A stretch of DNA of 64,000 nucleotides from Spirochaetales bacterium (GCA_037142615.1 JBAXAI010000018.1:11394-75393); one strand, 5' to 3'; numbered from the stretch's first letter, positions 405 to 36,002 are shown. Made by a program: numbers and translations. Notes: a model not told the origin generated them from the sequence alone.

Positions 405-1192
405 GTCGGCTTCTTCACGCACAGAACCTGGTGATGCAATTTGGAGGGCTCCGCGCTGTCAGCGACTTCAGCTTGGAACTCGCCGAAGGGGAGTTGGTGG
501 GCCTCATCGGCCCCAACGGTGCAGGAAAGACCACGGTCTTCAACATGCTGACAGGAGTGTACGCGCCGACCTCGGGCACCATTCGACTCCAGAATGCTAC
601 GGGGACCGACGAAAACATCGCAGGGCTGTTGCCCCACAAGATAACTCGCAAGGGTGTTGCCCGAACGTTTCAGAATATCAGGCTCTTCAAGAGCATGTCC
701 GTCTGGGAGAACGTCTCAATCGCGCGGCATTCCCACGTTCCTTACAATTTGGCCCAGGGAGTACTTCGCCTGCCTCCCTTCCGTAAAGCTGAGATTCAGT
801 TGAAGGCCGAAATCTTGGAACTTCTGGCGATCTTCAAGATAGACAACAAGGCCGAGTTTCAGGCCTCCAACTTGCCCTACGGGGAACAACGGAAGCTCGA
901 GATTGTTCGGGCGCTGGCCAGCAAACCCCGTATCCTGTTGCTCGACGAGCCTGCCGCGGGGATGAACCCCCAGGAAACTCTGGAGTTGATGGAACTCATC
1001 CGTTTCATCAAGGAACGGTTTCAGCTGACAGTGCTCTTGATTGAACATGACATGAGCTTGGTCATGGGCATTTGTGAAAGGTTGCTGGTGCTCGACTACG
1101 GCCGTACAATCGCATCGGGACTTCCCCTCGAAATCCGCCAGAATCCTGTTGTGATCAAGGCCTATCTTGGGGAGGACGCGGTCCATGCTTGA
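401..1192 (+). CDS. livG: Branched-chain amino acid ABC transporter ATP-binding protein
   Basis: GPNGAGKTT Walker A, ARTFQNIRLF, LPYGEQRKLEI, LLDEPAAG, IEHDM, AYLG end. Confidence 0.92.
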   Translation: MSRLLHAQNLVMQFGGLRAVSDFSLELAEGELVGLIGPNGAGKTTVFNMLTGVYAPTSGTIRLQNATGTDENIAGLLPHKITRKGVARTFQNIRLFKSMSVWENVSIARHSHVPYNLAQGVLRLPPFRKAEIQLKAEILELLAIFKIDNKAEFQASNLPYGEQRKLEIVRALASKPRILLLDEPAAGMNPQETLELMELIRFIKERFQLTVLLIEHDMSLVMGICERLLVLDYGRTIASGLPLEIRQNPVVIKAYLGEDAVHA

Positions 1193-1889
1193 TGTGCAAA
1201 ACCTCCACGTCTACTACGGTGCCATTCACGCGCTGCACGGAGTTTCCTTTCAGGTCCAAGAAGGGGAAATTGTCTCGCTGATCGGTGCCAACGGCGCCGG
1301 CAAGACGACCATACTGCATACTTTGTCGGCGCTGATCCGTCCCAAGGATGGCTCGATTAGTTTCTTGGGTAGCCCCATCGCCGCCAACAGCCCCGAGAGA
1401 ATCGTCAGGGCGGGGCTGGTCCAGGTGCCTGAGGGACGGCGCGTCTTCGCCAACCTCACCGTCCGCGACAACCTTGCCCTCGGAGCGTACACGCGCAAGG
1501 ACGTTGCAGGTATCGCAAGCGACCTCGAGAGAGTGTTTGCCCGGTTTCCACGGCTCAAAGAGCGGGCGAGACAGGTGTCTGGCACCCTGTCGGGCGGCGA
1601 ACAGCAGATGCTCGCTATCGGTCGAGCACTGATGGCCAGGCCAAAACTGTTGCTGCTCGATGAACCTTCCATGGGCCTTGCACCGCTCCTGGTCCGCGAA
1701 ATCTTCAGCATCATTACCGAAATCAACAAAGAGGGCACCACGGTTCTGCTGGTCGAGCAAAATGCCCACATGGCTCTCGGGATTTCTAACCGCGCCTACG
1801 TACTCGAAACGGGGCGGTTTGTGCTCAGTGGCCCGGCCAAGGAGTTGGCCCAGTCGGACGAAGTCCGCAAAGCCTACCTCGGCGGCTAG
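1185..1889 (+). CDS. livF: Branched-chain amino acid ABC transporter ATP-binding protein
   Basis: GANGAGKTT, VPEGRRVF, LSGGEQQML, LLDEPSMGLAP, VEQNA; GGAGG upstream of ATG. Confidence 0.92.
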   Translation: MLDVQNLHVYYGAIHALHGVSFQVQEGEIVSLIGANGAGKTTILHTLSALIRPKDGSISFLGSPIAANSPERIVRAGLVQVPEGRRVFANLTVRDNLALGAYTRKDVAGIASDLERVFARFPRLKERARQVSGTLSGGEQQMLAIGRALMARPKLLLLDEPSMGLAPLLVREIFSIITEINKEGTTVLLVEQNAHMALGISNRAYVLETGRFVLSGPAKELAQSDEVRKAYLGG

Positions 1890-2015: not shown

Positions 2016-2660
2016 ATGATTGTCGGCCAAAGAATGATCAAGAATCCCATTACCGTGACGCCCGAGACCCCTGTTTCCGACGCCCAGTACATGATGCGCA
2101 AAGAGAAAGTGCACCGGTTTCCCGTGGTCGGCAAAGACGGGCGGGTCAAGGGAATTGTCACCGAGAAGGATCTTCTGTACGCGACCCCGTCCCCGGCGAC
2201 CACGCTCGACGTGTACGAGATGAACTATTTGCTGTCCAAGTTGACCGTCGATGAGGTGATGAGCACTGACGTCATTTCGGTAACCGAAGACACGACCGTC
2301 GAAGAGGCCGCCCGGGTTTTGGTTGACAACAACATTGGCGGACTGCCCGTCATGCGCGGCGGACAGTTGGTCGGCATCATCACCGAAAGTGACCTGTTCA
2401 AGGTGTTCCTCGAGATGTTCGCCTCGCGGCAAAAGGGCTTGCGCATCACGCTCATGGTTCCCGAGCAGAAGGGCGAGTTGGCCCGTCTTTCGGGGGCGGT
2501 GAGTGCCATAGGCGGCAACATTGTCGCCCTCGGAACCTTCCTTGGCGAGGACTCCTCGCAGACCCTATTGACCATGAAAGTCCAAGGTTGTACCGAGGAA
2601 GCCCTTCGCGAGGCGGTCAAGCCCTTCGTTCAGAGGATCCTCGACTGCCGGTCCGTCTAG
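2016..2660 (+). CDS. CBS-pair + ACT domain protein (AcuB-like)
   Basis: Two CBS repeats (GIVTEKDL, GIITESDLF) and a C-terminal ACT-like domain; GGAGG RBS; commonly linked to liv operons. Confidence 0.85.
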   Translation: MIVGQRMIKNPITVTPETPVSDAQYMMRKEKVHRFPVVGKDGRVKGIVTEKDLLYATPSPATTLDVYEMNYLLSKLTVDEVMSTDVISVTEDTTVEEAARVLVDNNIGGLPVMRGGQLVGIITESDLFKVFLEMFASRQKGLRITLMVPEQKGELARLSGAVSAIGGNIVALGTFLGEDSSQTLLTMKVQGCTEEALREAVKPFVQRILDCRSV

Positions 2661-2673
2661 CCCCCCCGTTCTC

Positions 2674-2702
2674 TTGCGCAACAGGAGCCGTTTGCCTATA
2701 AT
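2674..2702 (+). promoter_or_regulatory. Putative sigma70 promoter of fusA
   Basis: TTGCGC-17 bp-TATAAT, 30 nt before the ATG; GAGAGG RBS. Confidence 0.7.
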
Positions 2703-2732
2703 AACCTCCACTTTGCAGAGAGAGGTTTTTCC

Positions 2733-4823
2733 ATGAGTATTGCTATCGACAAAATGCGTAACATCGGGATCAGCGCCCATATCGACTCGGGCAAGACGAC
2801 CCTGACCGAACGCATCCTGTTCTACTGTGGCCGCATCCACGCCATCCACGAAGTCAAGGGCAAAGACGGCGTTGGTGCCACCATGGACTCCATGGAACTC
2901 GAACGCGAGCGCGGGATCACCATTCAGTCAGCTGCCACCAGCGTGCAGTGGGGTGACAAGTTCATCAACATCATCGACACCCCAGGTCACGTTGACTTCA
3001 CCATCGAAGTAGAGCGTTCGCTGCGCGTTCTCGACGGCGCCATTTTGGTGCTTTGTTCGGTCGCCGGCGTGCAGTCTCAGTCGATTACCGTCGACCGTCA
3101 AATGAAGCGCTACGATGTGCCCCGGCTTGCCTTCATCAACAAGGCCGACCGGACCGGGGCCAACCCTTATCGGGTTCGCGAGCAGTTGCGCGACAAGCTC
3201 GGTCACAACGCCGTGTTCGTCACCCTCCCCATCGGTTTGGAAGACAAGTTTGAAGGCGTCATCGACTTGGTGAAGATGGTTGCTGTCTATTTTGAAGGCG
3301 AAGACGGCCTCGATATGGTCGAGCGCGAAATCCCGGCTGGGCAGCTGGCCGAAGCCGAAAAGTACCGTGAAATGATGATTGAAGAGCTTTCCATGTTCAG
3401 CGACGAGCTCATGGAACTCCACCTGGAAGGCAAGGACGCTCCCATCGACCTGGTCAAGGCTGCCATCCGCAAGGGCACCATCAGTCGCGAACTGACCGCC
3501 GTGTTTGTGGGTTCGGCGTACAAGAACAAGGGCGTTCAGGTACTTCTCAACGGTGTTGCCGACTACCTGCCGGCCCCCACCGAAAAGGCCAACTACGCGC
3601 TCGACCAGAACAACAACGAGGAACGCGTCGCCCTCGAGGTGATCGACTCCAAGCCGACCGTGGCGCTGGCGTTCAAGCTCGACGACGGCCAATACGGCCA
3701 GCTCACCTACGTGCGCATCTATCAGGGTGTGGTCAAGAAGGGCATGGAACTCAAGAACATGCGCACTCAGCGCCGCTTCAAGATCGGTCGCCTGATCAAG
3801 ATGCACTCCAACCATATGGAAGACATCGACTTTGCCGGCGCTGGTGACATCGCGGCCCTGTTCGGCATCGAGTGCGCCTCGGGCGATACTTTCTGCGACG
3901 ACCGCCTTGACGTCACCATGACCTCGATGTTCGTCCCTGCGGCGGTCATCTCGCTTTCCATCGAGCCCATCGACAAGAAGTCGGGCGACAACATGGCCAA
4001 GGCTCTCAACCGCTTCACCAAGGAAGACCCGACGTTCCGCACCTACGTCGACCCGGAGTCGAACCAGACCATCGTTCAGGGTATGGGCGAGTTGCACCTT
4101 GAGGTGTACATCGAACGCATGAAGCGCGAGTACAAAGCTGAAGTGAAAACCGGCATGCCCCAGGTCGCTTACCGCGAGGCGATCAGCGAACGGGTTGAGT
4201 TCACGTACGTGCACAAGAAGCAGACCGGTGGTTCGGGCCAGTACGCCAAGATCGGTGGGTTCATCGAACCCTTTTCGGAGAAGGACTACAACTTCGTCAA
4301 CATGGTGAAGGGTGGTTCCATCCCGAACGAGTTCATTCCCAGTTGTGACAAGGGCTTCCGTGAGGCCGTCAAGAAGGGCACGCTCATCGGGTTTCCCGTG
4401 GTAGGGGTTCAGGCTACCGTCAACGACGGTGCTTCCCACCCTGTCGATTCCTCCGACATGGCGTTCAGTACGGCTGCGCTCATGGCGTTCCGCGAAAACT
4501 ACGCCAAGGCCAAGCCCATCATCCTGGAACCCATCATGCGCGTGGCCGTCGAAGGCCCGACAGAGTTCCAAGGCAACATCTTTGGTTCGATTAACCAGCG
4601 CCGTGGCGTCATCATCGGGTCTACCGAAGACGGCCAGTTCTGCTCGGTGCAGGCGGAAGTGCCGCTGTCGGAAATGTTCGGTTATTCGACCATCCTCCGG
4701 TCGATGAGCCAGGGCAAAGCGGAGTTCACCATGGAGTTTGAAAAGTACGCCAAGGTGCCCGAAAGCGTCGCCGTGGTCTTGAAGAAAGAGTACGAAGAAA
4801 AGCGCAAGGCCATGAACCGCTAG
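2733..4823 (+). CDS. fusA: Elongation factor G (stand-alone spirochaete/mitochondrial EF-G1 type)
   Basis: [48 protein letters not shown]; 696 aa; not in an rpsL-rpsG operon. Confidence 0.97.
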
Positions 4824-4840
4824 CGACGGCAGTTCGTAGC

Positions 4841-4870
4841 AAGGGCCACCGGAAACGGTGGTCTTTTTTT
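4841..4870 (+). terminator. Rho-independent terminator of fusA
   Basis: GGCCACCG-GAAA-CGGTGGTC followed by T7. Confidence 0.85.
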
Positions 4871-4953
4871 GTGCCCGGACAGCCCCTCAGGGCATAAAAA
4901 AAGCCCCGGCTGTCCGGGACTCATGGGCGAGGAACCTCGAGGCGAGCCGACGG

Positions 4954-5547
4954 CTACTCCTCTTCTTCCTCTTCGGCAACCTCGACTTCAAACTCCTCGT
5001 CGGCCTCGGGGTCCATCAGCGCCAGTGACTTGCCCAGTGGTTCGAGCTTCTCGTGCACCTGGCGCTCGACTTCCCCGACCGATATGTTCAACGAGAAAGC
5101 GATTTCGTCGATCAGCAGCTTCATGGCGCTATCGTAGAGTTTGCGCTCCAAAATCGGGAGCTCTTTGACTTTGCTTCGGTGGTAGAGATTGCGGACAACG
5201 AGAGCGATGTCGGTGATGTCCCCGCTCTTGAGGTGGTCCAAGTTCATCTGGTAGCGCATCTTCCAGTCTGCGGTGACGGGCTCGAAATCGCTACCGATGA
5301 TCTCAAACGCCTCTTCGGCCTTTTCTGGCGGAACAATGGCCCGAATTCCGATCTCCACGGCCTTATCGACGGGAATCATGACCGTCATGTCGGTGACAGG
5401 AAGAAAGATCTGGTAATACTGGGTGGGTTTGCCTTTGAACACCCTCTCGGAGATCGACAGGATCTGGCCGACGCCCTGAAGGGGATACACCACTTTTTGG
5501 TTCAGAACAAAGGGAGCAGCGGCTCCGGGGACGGTCGCATCAGGCAT
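4954..5547 (-). CDS. carD: CarD/CdnL family RNA polymerase-binding regulator with acidic tail
   Basis: KVVYPLQGVGQI, MTVMIPVDK, GIRAIV, conserved W in DWKMRY, ERKLYDSA. Confidence 0.9.
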   Translation of the reverse strand: MPDATVPGAAAPFVLNQKVVYPLQGVGQILSISERVFKGKPTQYYQIFLPVTDMTVMIPVDKAVEIGIRAIVPPEKAEEAFEIIGSDFEPVTADWKMRYQMNLDHLKSGDITDIALVVRNLYHRSKVKELPILERKLYDSAMKLLIDEIAFSLNISVGEVERQVHEKLEPLGKSLALMDPEADEEFEVEVAEEEEEE

Positions 5548-18472: not shown

Positions 18473-20314
18473 ATGTGTGGAATTGTTGGTTACGTGGGGC
18501 CTCGCAAGGCCGCTGAAGTGCTGTTGCAAGGGCTCAAGATGCTCGAATACCGCGGCTACGACTCGTCGGGTATCGCCTACCTGCACCGCAACGCCATCAA
18601 GGTGTACAAAAAGGAAGGCAAGATTAACAACCTCGAGAGTGTGCTGCCCGAATCGGCCCCCTCGCATTGTGGGCTCGGGCACACCCGCTGGGCAACCCAC
18701 GGCAAGGTGAACGACCTCAACAGTCACCCCCACCTGAGCCAGTCGGGCAAAATTGCCATCGTGCACAACGGCATCATCGACAACTACAACGCGCTCAAGC
18801 ACGAGCTTCAGGCCAAGGGCGTGGTCTTCAAGAGCGAGACCGACAGCGAGGTCATCGCGCATCTGGTGGAGCAATACCTCGACGCCGACACCGCCGCTGG
18901 TCCCGAGGAAGCCGTTCGCAAGACTCTGGCCCGGCTGGTGGGCACCTACGGCATCGTCGTGCTGTTCACCGACTTTCCCGACCTGCTCATCGGCGCCAAG
19001 AACGGCTCGCCGCTGGTGGTAGGGCAGGGCGACGGCGAAATCTTCCTCGCCAGCGACCCGGCCGCGTTTATCGGCTACACGCGCAACGCCGCCTTTTTGG
19101 AAGACCGCGAAATGGTCGTCATCCGCAAGAATGAATGGGTGACCAAGACCTTGGGCAACGTGGTGGTGGCCCGCGAGGCCGAAGCCCTCAACTGGAGCGC
19201 CGAAGCCGCCTCGATGGGCGAGTTTCCCCACTACTTCGTCAAAGAGATTTTTGAGCAGCCCGAGGCCATGCGCCGAGCGCTGGGTCACGGCGGCCGCCTG
19301 ATGCCCGACTTCGGGACCGCCAAGCTCGGCGGCCTCAACCTTGAAAGCCGTGACTTGCTCGACGTGAAGCGCGTGGTGTTCATCGGCATGGGTTCCGCGC
19401 TGCTGGCCAGCCAGGTCGGCGCCTACCTGCTCGAAACCGTGGCCCGGATTCCCGCCACCGCCGAAGACAGCTCCGAGTTCCGTTACCGCAACCCCATCGT
19501 CGAAAAAGATACGCTGTATTTCGCCGTCAGCCAGAGCGGCGAGACCGCTGACACCATCCTCGCGATGCAAGAGATCCAGCAGCGCGGCGGTCGTGTGCTG
19601 GGCATCGTCAACGCCGTTGGCTCCACCATCGCGCGCCTGTGCAAGGGCGGGGTGTACATCCACGCCGGCCCGGAAATCTCGGTGACGAGCAGCAAGGCCT
19701 TCTTGGGCCAGATGGCGGTGATGAATCTGCTCACTGTCCTGTTCGCGCGTATGCACATTTTGAGTTTGGCGCGCGGACGCGAGATCATCGAACACCTGGC
19801 CGCGCTGCCTGCCTTGATGGACATCGCCCTCCAGCAGAGCCCGCACATCCAGAACGTGGCGCGCAAGTACATCCAGCACAAGAACTTCCTGTACATGGGG
19901 CGTGGCATTCAGTTTCCCATCGCGCTCGAAGGCGCGCTCAAGCTCAAGGAGATCAGCTACGTACACGCCGAGGGCTTCAGCTCGGGCGGCCTCAAGCACG
20001 GTCCGCTCGCGCTGGTGAGCCCCGACACCCCCTGCCTGTTTATCATCACCGAGGGCGAAACCTTCGAAAAGGTGCTCGGCAACATGCAGGAGGTGAAGGC
20101 CCGAAATGGGAAGATTATCGCTGTCACCAATAGTAACGACCAGCGCGTCGCTGCCCTCGCTGACGACGTGATCAAGGTCCCACTCACCGAGGAATTGATG
20201 GCGCCCTTCCTGACGCTCATACCTCTCCAGTTGTTCGCGTACTACACGGCCGTTGAACTGGGTGTCGACGTGGACAGGCCGCGCAATCTCGCGAAGTCGG
20301 TGACAACCGAGTGA
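18473..20314 (+). CDS. glmS: Glutamine--fructose-6-phosphate aminotransferase (isomerizing)
   Basis: MCGIVG, LEYRGYDS, GHTRWATHG, SQSGETADT, EGALKLKEISY, PRNLAKSVTTE. Confidence 0.98.
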   Translation: MCGIVGYVGPRKAAEVLLQGLKMLEYRGYDSSGIAYLHRNAIKVYKKEGKINNLESVLPESAPSHCGLGHTRWATHGKVNDLNSHPHLSQSGKIAIVHNGIIDNYNALKHELQAKGVVFKSETDSEVIAHLVEQYLDADTAAGPEEAVRKTLARLVGTYGIVVLFTDFPDLLIGAKNGSPLVVGQGDGEIFLASDPAAFIGYTRNAAFLEDREMVVIRKNEWVTKTLGNVVVAREAEALNWSAEAASMGEFPHYFVKEIFEQPEAMRRALGHGGRLMPDFGTAKLGGLNLESRDLLDVKRVVFIGMGSALLASQVGAYLLETVARIPATAEDSSEFRYRNPIVEKDTLYFAVSQSGETADTILAMQEIQQRGGRVLGIVNAVGSTIARLCKGGVYIHAGPEISVTSSKAFLGQMAVMNLLTVLFARMHILSLARGREIIEHLAALPALMDIALQQSPHIQNVARKYIQHKNFLYMGRGIQFPIALEGALKLKEISYVHAEGFSSGGLKHGPLALVSPDTPCLFIITEGETFEKVLGNMQEVKARNGKIIAVTNSNDQRVAALADDVIKVPLTEELMAPFLTLIPLQLFAYYTAVELGVDVDRPRNLAKSVTTE

Positions 20315-20387
20315 GTGAGATTGCGATGGCGTAAGCCGACCTTGGTCGGCGTCGCCCGGATTCTCGCGAAGTCGGTGACAACCGAGT
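20287..20387 (+). repeat. 26-bp exact direct repeat of the glmS 3' end (20287-20312 and 20362-20387) flanking a hairpin
   Basis: TCTCGCGAAGTCGGTGACAACCGAGT twice, 75 bp apart; GCCGAC-CTTG-GTCGGC at 20335-20350. Confidence 0.95.
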
Positions 20388-20485
20388 AGTTAGCCTTTTA
20401 CCAAGACCTGTGACACGGCCGAACTTTTGGTCTCAAAAATCAAAGTTTGTATGGATTAATTAGGAATAATGGACATAATAGGAGT

Positions 20486-21700
20486 ATGAGTAACGTAGCC
20501 GAACCGTTTGCCCCCTCGGAAGAGGGTGTTTCTGCTCCTTCGAAGTTGCGCTTGCTTCCCCGTCCGGTCGAAGTCGCGCCCGCCGAAGTTCACCCGACCA
20601 ACCAAGGGGTGCTCCCGACCTTCCTGGTGGGCCTTGTCTTCTGCCTCACCGCCATGTTGTGGGACCTGCTGGTTTCGCGGGAGTTTTCCCTGATCCCCAT
20701 CAGTCCGTTCTGCTTTTTGGGCTTCCTGATCGCGGAGTTCCTGCTCACCGAGCGCTGGTTCCGCAAGGCCGATGCGCAAAGTTCAGCGCTGGGCCAAAAG
20801 GTAACCCAAACGGAAGTGGCTCTGCTTGAGGCCGCCGAAGCCTACCGCCGCTTCGTTCCCGAACAGTTCCTTCGCCATCTGGAGCGCCGGTCCATCTCGC
20901 AGGTTCGCCTCGGCGATCAGGTCGCCCTGGGGATGACCGTGATGTTTGCCGACATCCGCAACTACACAGCCATGAGCGAACATCTCACCCCTGAAGAGAA
21001 CTTCTCGCTCCTCAACAGTTACTTTGGCCACATCGGGCCGGTGATCCGCGAACAGTTCGGCTTCGTCGACAAATACATCGGCGACGCTATCATGGCTTTG
21101 TTCGACGGTCCTGTCGATGAAGCGATCGCCGCCGCCGTCGGCATTCAGCTGGCCACCGCAGAGTACAACCGAAGTCGTTCCGACTACGGCCCCGGGCCCA
21201 TCCATATTGGTGTCGGCCTGCACGCCGGTCCGTTGATGCTCGGAGTGATCGGCGAACTCGACCGCATGGAAAGCACCGTCCTCGCCGATGCTGTCAACCT
21301 TGCCAGCCGAATTGAGTCGCTGACAAAGTACTACGATTGCAAGATTCTCCTTACCCGCACAACCTTTGAGGCGCAGACTGACCCGATGCCCTACGAGACC
21401 CGCCCGGTCGACTTGGTACGGGTCAAAGGCCGCAGCCAGGCCGTCGAACTGCTCGAAATCCTGGACGTTCGCTTCGACCCGAGAGCACGACTCAAGATCG
21501 AGCTGGCCGCTCACTTGGCCGAAGCCCTCATTGTCTATCGCAGCGGAGATCTGATCGAAGCCCGGAGTTTGTTCCAGCGCCTGGCCTACCGGGACCCCGA
21601 AGATATTCTGTACGGCATCTACCGGCGTCGTATCGACGAGATGATTCGCATGGGAATCCCCGATGGCTGGACAGGAATCAACGAGTTCGCGTTCAAGTGA
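20486..21700 (+). CDS. Membrane-bound class III adenylate/guanylate cyclase, paralog 1
   Basis: 2 TM; VMFADIRNYT, DKYIGDAIMA, IGVGLHAG, DAVNLASRIE, VRVKGR. Confidence 0.92.
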   Translation: MSNVAEPFAPSEEGVSAPSKLRLLPRPVEVAPAEVHPTNQGVLPTFLVGLVFCLTAMLWDLLVSREFSLIPISPFCFLGFLIAEFLLTERWFRKADAQSSALGQKVTQTEVALLEAAEAYRRFVPEQFLRHLERRSISQVRLGDQVALGMTVMFADIRNYTAMSEHLTPEENFSLLNSYFGHIGPVIREQFGFVDKYIGDAIMALFDGPVDEAIAAAVGIQLATAEYNRSRSDYGPGPIHIGVGLHAGPLMLGVIGELDRMESTVLADAVNLASRIESLTKYYDCKILLTRTTFEAQTDPMPYETRPVDLVRVKGRSQAVELLEILDVRFDPRARLKIELAAHLAEALIVYRSGDLIEARSLFQRLAYRDPEDILYGIYRRRIDEMIRMGIPDGWTGINEFAFK

Positions 21701-22923
21701 GCCGACCCTTCGTCAAGTCGGATCCGCCCACCAGTCTGGAACCCACCATCGGGCACCTTCGTCTTGTGCCTGTCGCCAGTCCACCGGATCCAGAGGTTCT
21801 GAAGGCCGTTGTCACCGCGAGTCAGCGGGCCTTGGCGCCCACCTTTGCGGTGGGCGTCGTGCTCTGCCTGGCGGGCCTGGCGTTCGATCTGTCGCCGTGG
21901 CATAGACTTGTTGCCGTTCCTGTTACGCCGCTGGTGCTTCTGGGCTACCTCGTGGTCGGTTTCGCGCTGGCCCGAAGGTGGTTTCAGCAGGCCGACGTTT
22001 CAACGGTCGAGCTGAACCAAAAGCTCACTGACACGGAACTCGCCCTGATCGAGGCCGCCGACGCCTACAGTCGCTTTTTCCCCGAGCAGTTTCTGCGGCA
22101 CTTCGAGCGCAAGTCGGTCGCGCAGGTACGTCTGGGGGACCAAGTTGCTCGCGGAATGACCGTCATGTTTGCCGACATCCGCAACTTTACCGCCATGAGC
22201 GAAAACTTGACTCCCGAAGAGAACTTCCGGTTCCTAAACGACTACTATGGTCGCATAGGCCCCGTCATACGGGAACAATACGGCTTCATCGACAAATACA
22301 TCGGCGATGCCATCATGGCCCTCTTCGATGGTCCGGTAGACGAAGCTATCGCTGCCGCTGTTGCCATCCAGTTGGCGACCGCCGACTACAACCTGAATCT
22401 CAAGGACCAGCGGTTTGGCCCCATCACGATCGGTGTGGGCTTGCACAGCGGGCCGTTGATGTTGGGTGTGATCGGCGAGATCGACCGGATGGAAAGCACG
22501 GTGATCGCCGACGCCGTGAACCTGGCCAGTCGCATCGAGTCACTGACGAAGTACTACGATTGCCGAATCCTTCTTACCCGCTCGACCTTTGAGGCTCAGT
22601 CGGATCCATTGCCGTACATGACTCGACCGGTTGACTTGGTCCGGGTCAAGGGCCGCCGGGAGTCCGTGGAACTGCTCGAAATCCTCGACGAGCGGTTTGA
22701 CCCGCGGGCTTTCCTCAAAAGGGACCTCGCGGCGCACTTAGCCGAGGCTCTGATCGTGTACCGACGCGGTGAGTTTCAGGAAGCGCGTATCCTGTTTCAG
22801 CGTTTGGCCTATTTGGACCCGCAAGACGTGCTCTACGGGATCTATCGGCGACGAACCGAAGAGATGGTTCGGCTCGGAAAACCCGAAGGCTGGACGGGAA
22901 TCAACGAATTCGCTTTCAAGTGA
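21697..22923 (+). CDS. Membrane-bound class III adenylate/guanylate cyclase, paralog 2
   Basis: Same motifs; GTGA start/stop overlap; identical C-terminus GWTGINEFAFK. Confidence 0.92.
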   Translation: MSRPFVKSDPPTSLEPTIGHLRLVPVASPPDPEVLKAVVTASQRALAPTFAVGVVLCLAGLAFDLSPWHRLVAVPVTPLVLLGYLVVGFALARRWFQQADVSTVELNQKLTDTELALIEAADAYSRFFPEQFLRHFERKSVAQVRLGDQVARGMTVMFADIRNFTAMSENLTPEENFRFLNDYYGRIGPVIREQYGFIDKYIGDAIMALFDGPVDEAIAAAVAIQLATADYNLNLKDQRFGPITIGVGLHSGPLMLGVIGEIDRMESTVIADAVNLASRIESLTKYYDCRILLTRSTFEAQSDPLPYMTRPVDLVRVKGRRESVELLEILDERFDPRAFLKRDLAAHLAEALIVYRRGEFQEARILFQRLAYLDPQDVLYGIYRRRTEEMVRLGKPEGWTGINEFAFK

Positions 22924-35143: not shown

Positions 35144-36002
35144 GTTTCCACGGAACCAAGGTATTGGCCCGGCCGATACTCGACTTGCCCGAGGCCACGA
35201 TCATCCAGGTATCTGCCGTCCCTCTGCACCAGGTTCGTGTCGCGGTGGTGCCCTGAGGGCTTCGCTCCTGCCCTTCGCCCAAGGGGACCCCGGCCGCTGT
35301 TGCCAGTTTACGGGCCTCACCGGCGCGAAGCGCCCACGCAAAGGCATCGAGAGGCGCCTCCCCCGGCCCGGTGCGAAGCGTCAGCAACCCCGTTACCGCA
35401 GAAAGTCCCTTGCCAGCCGGTTGAAAAAATACTTTCCCGGCGGCAGAAGTCCCCGGCTTGTAAAGGACGACCAGTAAAGCTCCCTTGGCTACCTCGGTGT
35501 CAGGAAAGACGAAATCCTGATGGGTCCCTGGCCCCCGGTAGTCGAGCGTCAGGCCCCCCAGGTTGCCGGCCTGGGTCACCAGCACCTCGACGGCATCGGG
35601 CTTGTCACCGGTGCCGGCAAACCTGACCTCGTTGAGGCGCACCCCGGCCGGATGTTCGTTGGGACCCAGCAACTTACCTTGCAAACTGGTCGGATTGCCG
35701 GCCTTGTCGCCAACGGAGACCGACCAGTGGTACTCCTTTCCTGGTCGCAGGCCCGAGGGAAGCCCGAGTAACAGGCGGGTCTCTTCGAGCTTCACAGGTA
35801 CCTGCGGGGCAAAGTCGCCGTCTGCCGTGGCCTTTCCCAGCGGCTCATCCCATTCCAGAACCAGGGACCATCCAGTGCCCCCGGGTGTGGTGGGTGCGAG
35901 GTGATGCCGCTGAAGCTTGGGGCCTTGAGTGTCACGAGGTTCGCCTCCGACGCAGGCTGCCAGCGTGACCGCCAGGGCAAGAGCAGGTATGAAGTTGCGC
36001 AT
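34782..36002 (-). CDS. Lipoprotein with Ig-like + lamin-tail-like domain; true end probably near 35140
   Basis: AAGGAG RBS, lipobox LAAC; RLNEVR..DAVEV..AGNLGG motif; low-complexity tail after 'PWKP'. Confidence 0.7.
   Translation of the reverse strand: MRNFIPALALAVTLAACVGGEPRDTQGPKLQRHHLAPTTPGGTGWSLVLEWDEPLGKATADGDFAPQVPVKLEETRLLLGLPSGLRPGKEYHWSVSVGDKAGNPTSLQGKLLGPNEHPAGVRLNEVRFAGTGDKPDAVEVLVTQAGNLGGLTLDYRGPGTHQDFVFPDTEVAKGALLVVLYKPGTSAAGKVFFQPAGKGLSAVTGLLTLRTGPGEAPLDAFAWALRAGEARKLATAAGVPLGEGQERSPQGTTATRTWCRGTADTWMIVASGKSSIGRANTLVPWKPKPSSRKPVRSSNSAKSSRSRRSSSPICPVARSRRGLRPNPPPAGAPSLPRPSTLRPGEQGQEVVFPQTAREKDPLGNPPRLRCEPETLDAGFPQAASGEAAGRQTRRDRRRKPSRPAGW

Follow-up and report, generated by a model that had tools for sequence, protein, structure and literature searches.

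Prophages and yeast homing elements, which bring enzymes of their own, are known to replace the 3′ end of a gene that they enter. Where prophage e14 or phage 21 occupies the 3′ end of icd in E. coli, the element supplies a replacement end, and the icdC fragment is left behind as a short direct repeat; the differences between the icd ends are mostly silent (PMC13626634). In yeast, each entry of a WHO homing element at FBA1 replaces the 3′ end of this glycolytic gene, and the old ends pile up downstream (PMC7282813).

The locus described here is the 3′ end of glmS in a lake spirochaete, where two copies of the end of the coding sequence are separated by a member of a structured, two-hairpin dispersed repeat family, named R1 here. 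As interpreted below, there is a likeness to e14 and icd: an incoming element would have brought the end of a housekeeping gene, the old end lies downstream, and the differences found between such ends are mostly silent. Unlike e14, a 15-kb prophage with its own integrase, the insert is a 75-nt non-coding hairpin repeat with no linked recombinase; unlike the WHO elements, which are eukaryotic, carry their own endonuclease and home by double-strand-break repair, it has no ORF.

R1 can also be compared with REP and REPIN sequences. Like them, it is a short, structured, palindromic intergenic repeat, present in tens of copies and vertically confined to one lineage, in a genome with one RAYT-like gene. 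Unlike the REPIN, an inverted REP doublet, it has two dissimilar hairpins, linked by TAAG and GT, which are conserved and unpaired, and, again unlike REP/REPIN, the RAYT-like gene is not flanked by R1. No report of REP/REPIN elements entering coding ends with a replacement end was found in the literature.

The IS200/IS605-derived PATEs have hairpin-defined ends and a precise 3′ boundary, and move by single-strand peel and paste. R1 shares the hairpin-defined ends, the precise 3′ boundary, and the lack of target duplication at ordinary copies; this likeness is one of layout, and putative as to cleavage motif, guide pairing, and circular intermediate. PATEs are not known to take flanking gene sequence with them. 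Tn7 inserts downstream of glmS, with a 5-bp duplication. The gene end is thus the same one as in attTn7, but here 26–31 nt of coding sequence are duplicated, and Tn7 genes were not found. Literature searches for a small non-coding element bringing a replacement gene end returned nothing relevant (subscription journals were outside their coverage), and those for glmS-end duplications nothing pertinent.

The duplicated glmS end

The window (the whole stretch of DNA analyzed, 64,000 nt; all coordinates count from its first letter) contains the following features around the glmS stop codon:

18473..20314, + strand: glmS (glutamine--fructose-6-phosphate aminotransferase), 613 aa, now TGA-terminated; from the ORF and its translation
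20282..20292, + strand: 5′ arm of hairpin 1, formed by coding sequence of glmS (codons R-N-L-A), starting where the 31-nt repeat starts; from the inverted repeat, minimum-energy folds, and the first helix of the R1 model
20287..20312, + strand: copy 1 of the 26-nt repeat, comprising the last codons of the working glmS and the first base (T) of its stop codon; loop of hairpin 1
20315..20325, + strand: 3′ arm of hairpin 1, pairing with 20282–20292 (10 Watson-Crick pairs and one G-U); from folds, and aligned to the R1 3′ arm
20328..20356, + strand: R1 module 2, with an outer 4-bp stem, TAAG, a 6-bp hairpin (20335–20350), GT, and a closing stem ending in GTCGCC; from the R1 alignment and model
20357..20361, + strand: 5-nt linker from module 2 to the exact repeat; 3/5 nt match those before copy 1
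20362..20389, + strand: copy 2 of the repeat, followed by TAG; native glmS end, now displaced; from the same-genus stop codon and the spacing to the downstream gene
20390..21700, + strand: native intergenic region and downstream gene, an adenylate/guanylate cyclase domain protein (Pfam PF00211) with a probable ATG at 20487; start syntenic in the same-genus genome G002

The translated GlmS ends in LAKSVTTE before the TGA and is 92% identical to that of a Spirochaetales bacterium MAG. As originally predicted, an exact 26-nt direct repeat lies in the stop region with a period of 75 nt (20287–20312 and 20362–20387); it widens to 31 nt at 29/31 matching positions (20282–20312 and 20357–20387). These are the only copies of the 26-mer in the whole genome, and none of 100 dinucleotide shuffles of the sequence gave two matches. 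Also as predicted, the frame stays open past the TGA, for 24 further codons, before a second tail, ILAKSVTTE, and a TAG; so do the 6-bp hairpin at 20335–20350 and the pairing of 20282–20290 with 20317–20325 recur in our analysis.

Misassembly had been raised as a possible source of the duplication. As far as contigs show, it is no assembly artefact, since contigs that two other studies assembled independently run through both copies with no difference (X3 record 10, 19931–20741; X5 record 18, 20236–20962). A further contig (X6 record 26, 20287–20615) also covers both and differs once, by C>T at 20383 in copy 2. The runs that contain the window are freshwater and lake metagenomes. RNA contigs from run X12 cover 20494–21100, inside the downstream cyclase-domain gene only, and are uninformative on the glmS 3′ end.

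The X6 contigs break at the repeat: one ends exactly at 20312, and another begins exactly at 20287, although at a contig depth of only ~4 such ends may merely reflect low coverage. Breaks at these points would be expected of a k=31 assembly graph, which we take to have been used for the X6 contigs, were an empty allele present alongside a circle or tandem junction; at this depth they are no more than a hint. No empty glmS allele was observed directly.

A dispersed hairpin repeat between the copies

R1 surfaced in a genome-wide scan for short-range direct repeats, as arrays with a unit resembling the glmS spacer, and was followed up with pattern searches. From 5′ to 3′ it consists of a 9–12-bp hairpin, RGG, G-S-S-TAAG, a short hairpin, and GT-S-S-CC, where the two S-S pairs are complementary. 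The family was defined by an alignment of 27 copies, not including the one at glmS, and a covariance model was trained on it. RNAalifold predicts 17 base pairs on this alignment, and 13 show compensatory changes; the closing pair, for instance, reads G-C in 15 copies but C-G in 12.

The model has 65 matches in the genome at E ≤ 0.01, including the 27 training copies. Under stricter filters this genome has 59 and the four others of its genus have 6, 3, 5, and 7, and 36 genomes from outside the genus have none. Copies are intergenic and occur in both orientations, according to an ORF-context analysis with rough gene calls (glmS itself was missed). Rfam had no matches at E ≤ 5 for 20100–20600, and none at E ≤ 1 for eight loci with R1 members. 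The covariance model was relied on because the motif alone is unspecific: it gave 50 matches in the genome and 38 on the reversed genome, compared with 42 and 9 when the upstream hairpin was included. A search for hairpin 1 on its own used a pattern too loose to inform.

Ordinary R1 copies lack flanking duplications: for the 45 tested, the longest common string was 3–7 nt, equal to the null expectation. Duplicated gene ends beside R1 were likewise found at none of 18 loci in relatives. R1 insertion thus does not routinely duplicate a gene end. Local tandem duplications involving R1 are plentiful in the genome. An integron reading of the family was dropped, with no integron integrase above cut-off and R1 copies in both orientations.

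The 49-nt spacer at glmS is an R1 copy. The best match to the R1 model in the 64-kb window is at 20263–20365 (21.1 bits), with an E value of 0.0024 for the whole window, or 1.3e-5 when the search is confined to 351 nt; the calibration is rough. It is a weak copy, at 21 bits compared with 26–79 for the listed members, and fails the E 0.01 threshold at whole-genome scale. The segment 20328–20356 matches every invariant column of the 27-member alignment, including TAAG, GT, and the covarying closing stem.

Hairpin 1 is likewise in place. Its 3′ arm ends 2 nt before module 2, within the R1 norm of 2–4 nt; its loop is 22–26 nt rather than the typical 3–6 nt and holds the last codons and the stop. 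The 117-nt stretch folds better than any of 200 shuffles (z = −4.6 as RNA, −5.0 as DNA). The boundaries coincide as well: the 31-nt repeat opens at the foot of hairpin 1, and its second copy opens at the base directly following module 2. The segment 20282–20356 (75 nt) is thus laid out like one whole R1 element with a gene end in its loop.

The original prediction had also looked to the rest of the genome for the spacer, but there is no second copy by blastn-short, which returned nothing beyond 14 nt. A 21-nt pattern allowing ≤3 mismatches, run against five genomes of the genus, returned only the glmS locus itself.

Relatives and the direction of the change

Relatives with an element at this site, a prospect held out by the original prediction, did not appear: among 19 relatives' glmS loci none contains an inserted element, and none has a duplicated end. 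The tail peptides at all 19 belong to one family, and 7 of them are identical to the tail here. In the same-genus relatives whose glmS end was found (G002, G003, and G004) the stop is TAG in all three; in more distant family members it is TAA.

Copy 2 (TAG) and the DNA beyond it are the original glmS end, and copy 1 (TGA) belongs to the 75-nt insertion, which is specific to this lineage. Copy 2 is taken as native because TAG is the stop of the genus, and because the intergenic length and downstream gene match those of G002 when counted from copy 2: the same gene follows ~88 nt past the glmS stop in G002 and ~96 nt past the TAG of copy 2 here.

A degenerate tail pattern was also scanned over 401 genomes of the class and matched twice in eight genomes besides this one. 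Match positions were compared for six of these (all but G334 and G136); of the six, only G119 has both matches on one contig, 1,979 nt apart, and in G331, for instance, they are on different contigs. G119, which belongs to another family of the class, has a 2-kb insert with a TIR/SEFIR gene between duplicated glmS ends.

The same layout at eno, nrd, and ftsK

ORFs of ≥150 codons were screened for a copy of their last seven residues and stop within 330 nt downstream. Nine of 10,296 had one, and none did with shuffled tails. Five of the nine trace to a tRNA tandem, repeat arrays, or spurious frames. The other four are real genes with an R1 or module-2 element between the copies: glmS and three further housekeeping genes of this lake spirochaete, at which the same layout recurs (G000 is the genome containing the window):

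G000:C59: spare end of eno (enolase); period 108 nt; 10 synonymous and 0 non-synonymous codon differences
G000:C5: spare end of nrd (ribonucleotide reductase large subunit); period 95 nt; 4 synonymous and 1 non-synonymous
G000:C74: spare end of ftsK; period 97 nt; 6 synonymous and 0 non-synonymous

Summed over these three pairs, the codon differences are 20 synonymous and 1 non-synonymous. The glmS copies, with a period of 75 nt, are identical at 26/26 nt; because they are identical to the letter, the glmS insertion is a young event, and the youngest of the four. Reverse transcriptases are present in the genome, but the differences between copies are not adenine-specific, and a DGR reading was rejected.

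Among relatives, G002 has the eno and ftsK arrangements too, while G001, G003, and G004 have single ends. At all six junctions (four in G000, two in G002) the displaced copy opens right after the GTCGCC of module 2, and at eno, as at glmS, the partner of the 3′ arm is coding sequence where copy 1 starts. The eno insert contains two in-frame stops. For nrd, the single native end of G002 agrees with copy 2 of G000 at four of the five sites at which the G000 copies differ; the downstream copy is therefore taken to be the resident, and the gene-joined copy the newcomer. Contig C72 has yet another recoded 3′ region of ftsK, the third and a longer one, interrupted by three inserted R1 copies; its downstream flank is the same as on C74.

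Probable insertion of a gene end with the repeat

The reading preferred here, with a probability of about 0.7, is that an R1 member inserted into the last glmS codons as a 75-nt unit, supplying a new end and displacing the old one. The inserted unit would give glmS its working end (copy 1, with TGA), and the old end (copy 2, with TAG) would be an untranslated leftover behind the 3′ end of the element. Because glmS and its C-terminal tail are indispensable, only insertions keeping a complete tail would be expected to survive.

The insertion could have gone by way of a RAYT-like transposase, of a small circular intermediate, or of template switching during replication. We favor a small excised circle, consisting of gene end and R1, that would re-enter the same gene position. 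The unit might be cut at the precise 3′ end of the element and at an upstream site within the gene, circularized, and inserted at that site in an intact copy; such cutting, circularizing, and reinsertion would give the observed order and junctions. The candidate enzyme is a RAYT-like HUH transposase acting in trans. The genome has a single RAYT-like gene (G000:C3:49659-49997), with 46 bits to PF01797 and 77.6 bits to NF047646, the latter below the curated cut-off of 80; R1 has no match (E ≤ 1) within 1.5 kb on either side of it. The lack of flanking duplications at ordinary R1 copies is what is expected of hairpin-guided single-strand transposition. Alleles could then spread among related strains by ordinary homologous recombination, pairing a foreign new end with a resident old one, which would explain the synonymous-only differences without selection on the leftover copy.

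A more far-reaching version, possible but rather unlikely, is that R1 and a short gene end make up a protein-free, site-specific mobile cassette of 75–110 nt, which would be excised as a circle and re-enter at the same position of the same conserved gene, in the same or a related strain, by means of a host HUH (RAYT-like) enzyme supplied in trans.

Other explanations

Replication template switching could produce the duplication with no transposase and no mobility: the polymerase would leave the glmS end, copy ~45 nt of a distant R1, and return upstream of its exit, so that 26 nt are duplicated. This would account for a direct duplication of arbitrary length around a part-element (the 3′ arm and module 2), fits the GAGT/GAGT microhomology at the left junction, and sits well both with the absence of flanking duplications at other R1 copies and with the local tandem duplications involving R1 in which this genome is rich. 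We nonetheless consider it unlikely. A donor with this 49-nt sequence was not found in the genome or in four further genomes of the genus, and neither the exact start of the displaced copy at the element's 3′ end in all six cases nor the polarity at nrd, where it is the gene-joined copy that differs from the relative's native end, is explained by it. An attL/attR scar, as proposed in the original prediction, would require a larger integrase-bearing element that brought a replacement end to glmS and then suffered internal deletion down to 49 nt. The geometry fits, with the new end joined to the gene and the old end displaced, as for icd/icdC (PMC13626634), and the 2-kb insert between duplicated glmS ends in G119 offers a larger element in such a position. 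What lies between the copies here, however, is one entire module of a repeat that the genome contains about 60 times, and the four loci would each need a separate collapse to such an R1 element; in addition, no relative has an island here (0/19), the 49 nt between the copies hold no integrase or element genes, and exact scans of metagenome and viral contigs, collections from which near-identical records may be missing, found no match to the 26-mer in either. The proposal stands in so far as the locus bears the footprint of an entry into the glmS 3′ end, with the downstream copy as the displaced original; its island does not, the whole insert being a short repeat native to the genus, and we regard the collapsed-island origin itself as quite improbable.

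The two remaining proposals concern function rather than origin. The stop-enclosing hairpin and in-frame tail might form an RNA signal for read-through, bypassing, selenocysteine insertion, or glmS regulation: the hairpin around the stop codon is strong, the 75-nt period keeps the frame with no further stop, and the sole variant in copy 2 (C>T at 20383) would be synonymous. Against this, only two of the four loci are in frame, the sister periods of 95 and 97 nt being out of frame, and the eno insert has its second in-frame stop; none of the 47 tRNAs found in the genome is a tRNA-Sec; the feature is missing from all 19 relatives; and a read-through product would bear two tails. A read-through signal is thus unsupported, and a functional RNA of any of these kinds very improbable. 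As for a second or decoy Tn7 target, the sole point in its favor is the established binding of the E. coli glmS 3′ end by TnsD. A search for TniQ/TnsD gave 0 matches, which weighs little since the 14 control genomes gave none either; a single TnsA-like match falls below the family cut-off and lies inside a 1217-aa frame. No element lies downstream of either copy, copy 2 being followed by native intergenic DNA, and none of the 19 relatives has one. The chance that the duplicated end is a Tn7 site appears negligible.

Implications

Insertion of R1 together with a gene end would differ from the known cases in its passenger, a non-coding hairpin repeat of 50–100 nt, and in the recurrence of the pattern at four essential genes. 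Because the glmS copies are still identical to the letter, the junctions there are visible before they have blurred, with the displaced end at the element's 3′ end and coding sequence serving as a hairpin arm. For annotation there is a warning, that such tails are neither read-through signals nor Tn7 sites.

If the unlikely cassette version were true, occupied and empty alleles would both be functional, because the cassette would always bring a working gene end; the ends of essential genes (glmS, eno, nrd, ftsK) would be open to colonization, and their silently recoded spare ends explained. The glmS locus would then be a time-zero snapshot, and the contig breaks in X6 might be excision products. 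The preferred reading opens two questions to testing: by what means small repeats of bacteria get into the ends of genes, and why silently recoded spare ends occur in many genomes.

Gene ends split by R1 elsewhere in the genome

In the source genome, an R1 or module-2 element (R1 being the dispersed, two-hairpin repeat family of this genus, and module 2 its 3' part) also separates the real end of the genes for enolase (eno), the ribonucleotide reductase large subunit and ftsK from a second copy of that end, which consists of the last 8-15 codons and the stop, silently recoded:

Contig C59, 403-558, minus strand: enolase end, R1/module-2 element, recoded end copy
Contig C5, about 106151-106272, minus strand: ribonucleotide reductase large subunit end, R1/module-2 element, recoded end copy
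Contig C74, 448-589, plus strand: ftsK end, R1/module-2 element, recoded end copy

The same-genus relative G002 shows this layout at eno and ftsK too. A third copy of the ftsK 3' region, about 190 codons long and recoded, lies on contig C72 (1-900), with three R1 elements breaking it up; the flank downstream of it is the one also present on C74. This copy is a strain variant or else a displaced, long gene end.

Other R1 copies, Y1 transposase domains and reverse transcriptases

Within the window the R1 model also matches, less strongly than at glmS, a second place (35755-35841, plus strand; 16 bits, E 0.039). The 37-kb contig C37 carries about 20 R1 copies, some of them in tandem arrays at contig ends that repeat every 153, 188 or 341 nt; C37 and the start of C21 are an R1 hot spot that disrupts the assembly.

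Y1 transposase and reverse-transcriptase genes are also present in this genome:

Contig C3, 49659-51811: RAYT-like Y1 transposase gene and RVT_1 neighbor
L060 (contig C5, 79927-83124), local 1033-1818, minus strand: joint Y1 transposase/BrnT open frame

The RVT_1 reverse-transcriptase gene on C3 (51140-51811) is about 1.1 kb from the transposase gene; two more are found on contigs C55 and C67. The L060 frame, a single one, combines a partial Y1 transposase domain (C-terminal half; 21.8 bits) with a BrnT toxin domain (82 bits), and an R1 copy sits about 350 nt past the end of the frame.

Surroundings of the glmS end

Window 20487-22923, plus strand: two neighboring paralogs coding for adenylate/guanylate cyclase catalytic domains
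L023 (G119, contig C1, 99500-107500), local 2262-5000: glmS-end region with inserted cargo gene
L023, local 3156-4586, minus strand: TIR/SEFIR-domain gene, 476 aa

The cyclase-domain pair follows glmS in the window, with a 4-nt overlap between the second gene and the first gene's stop. In G119, from another family of the class, the TIR/SEFIR-domain gene has glmS on one side and, on the other, a glmS 3' fragment that is duplicated and carries an internal deletion, the duplication also taking in the downstream flank of this fragment. The gene is cargo put in at the glmS end, by an apparent single-crossover integration.
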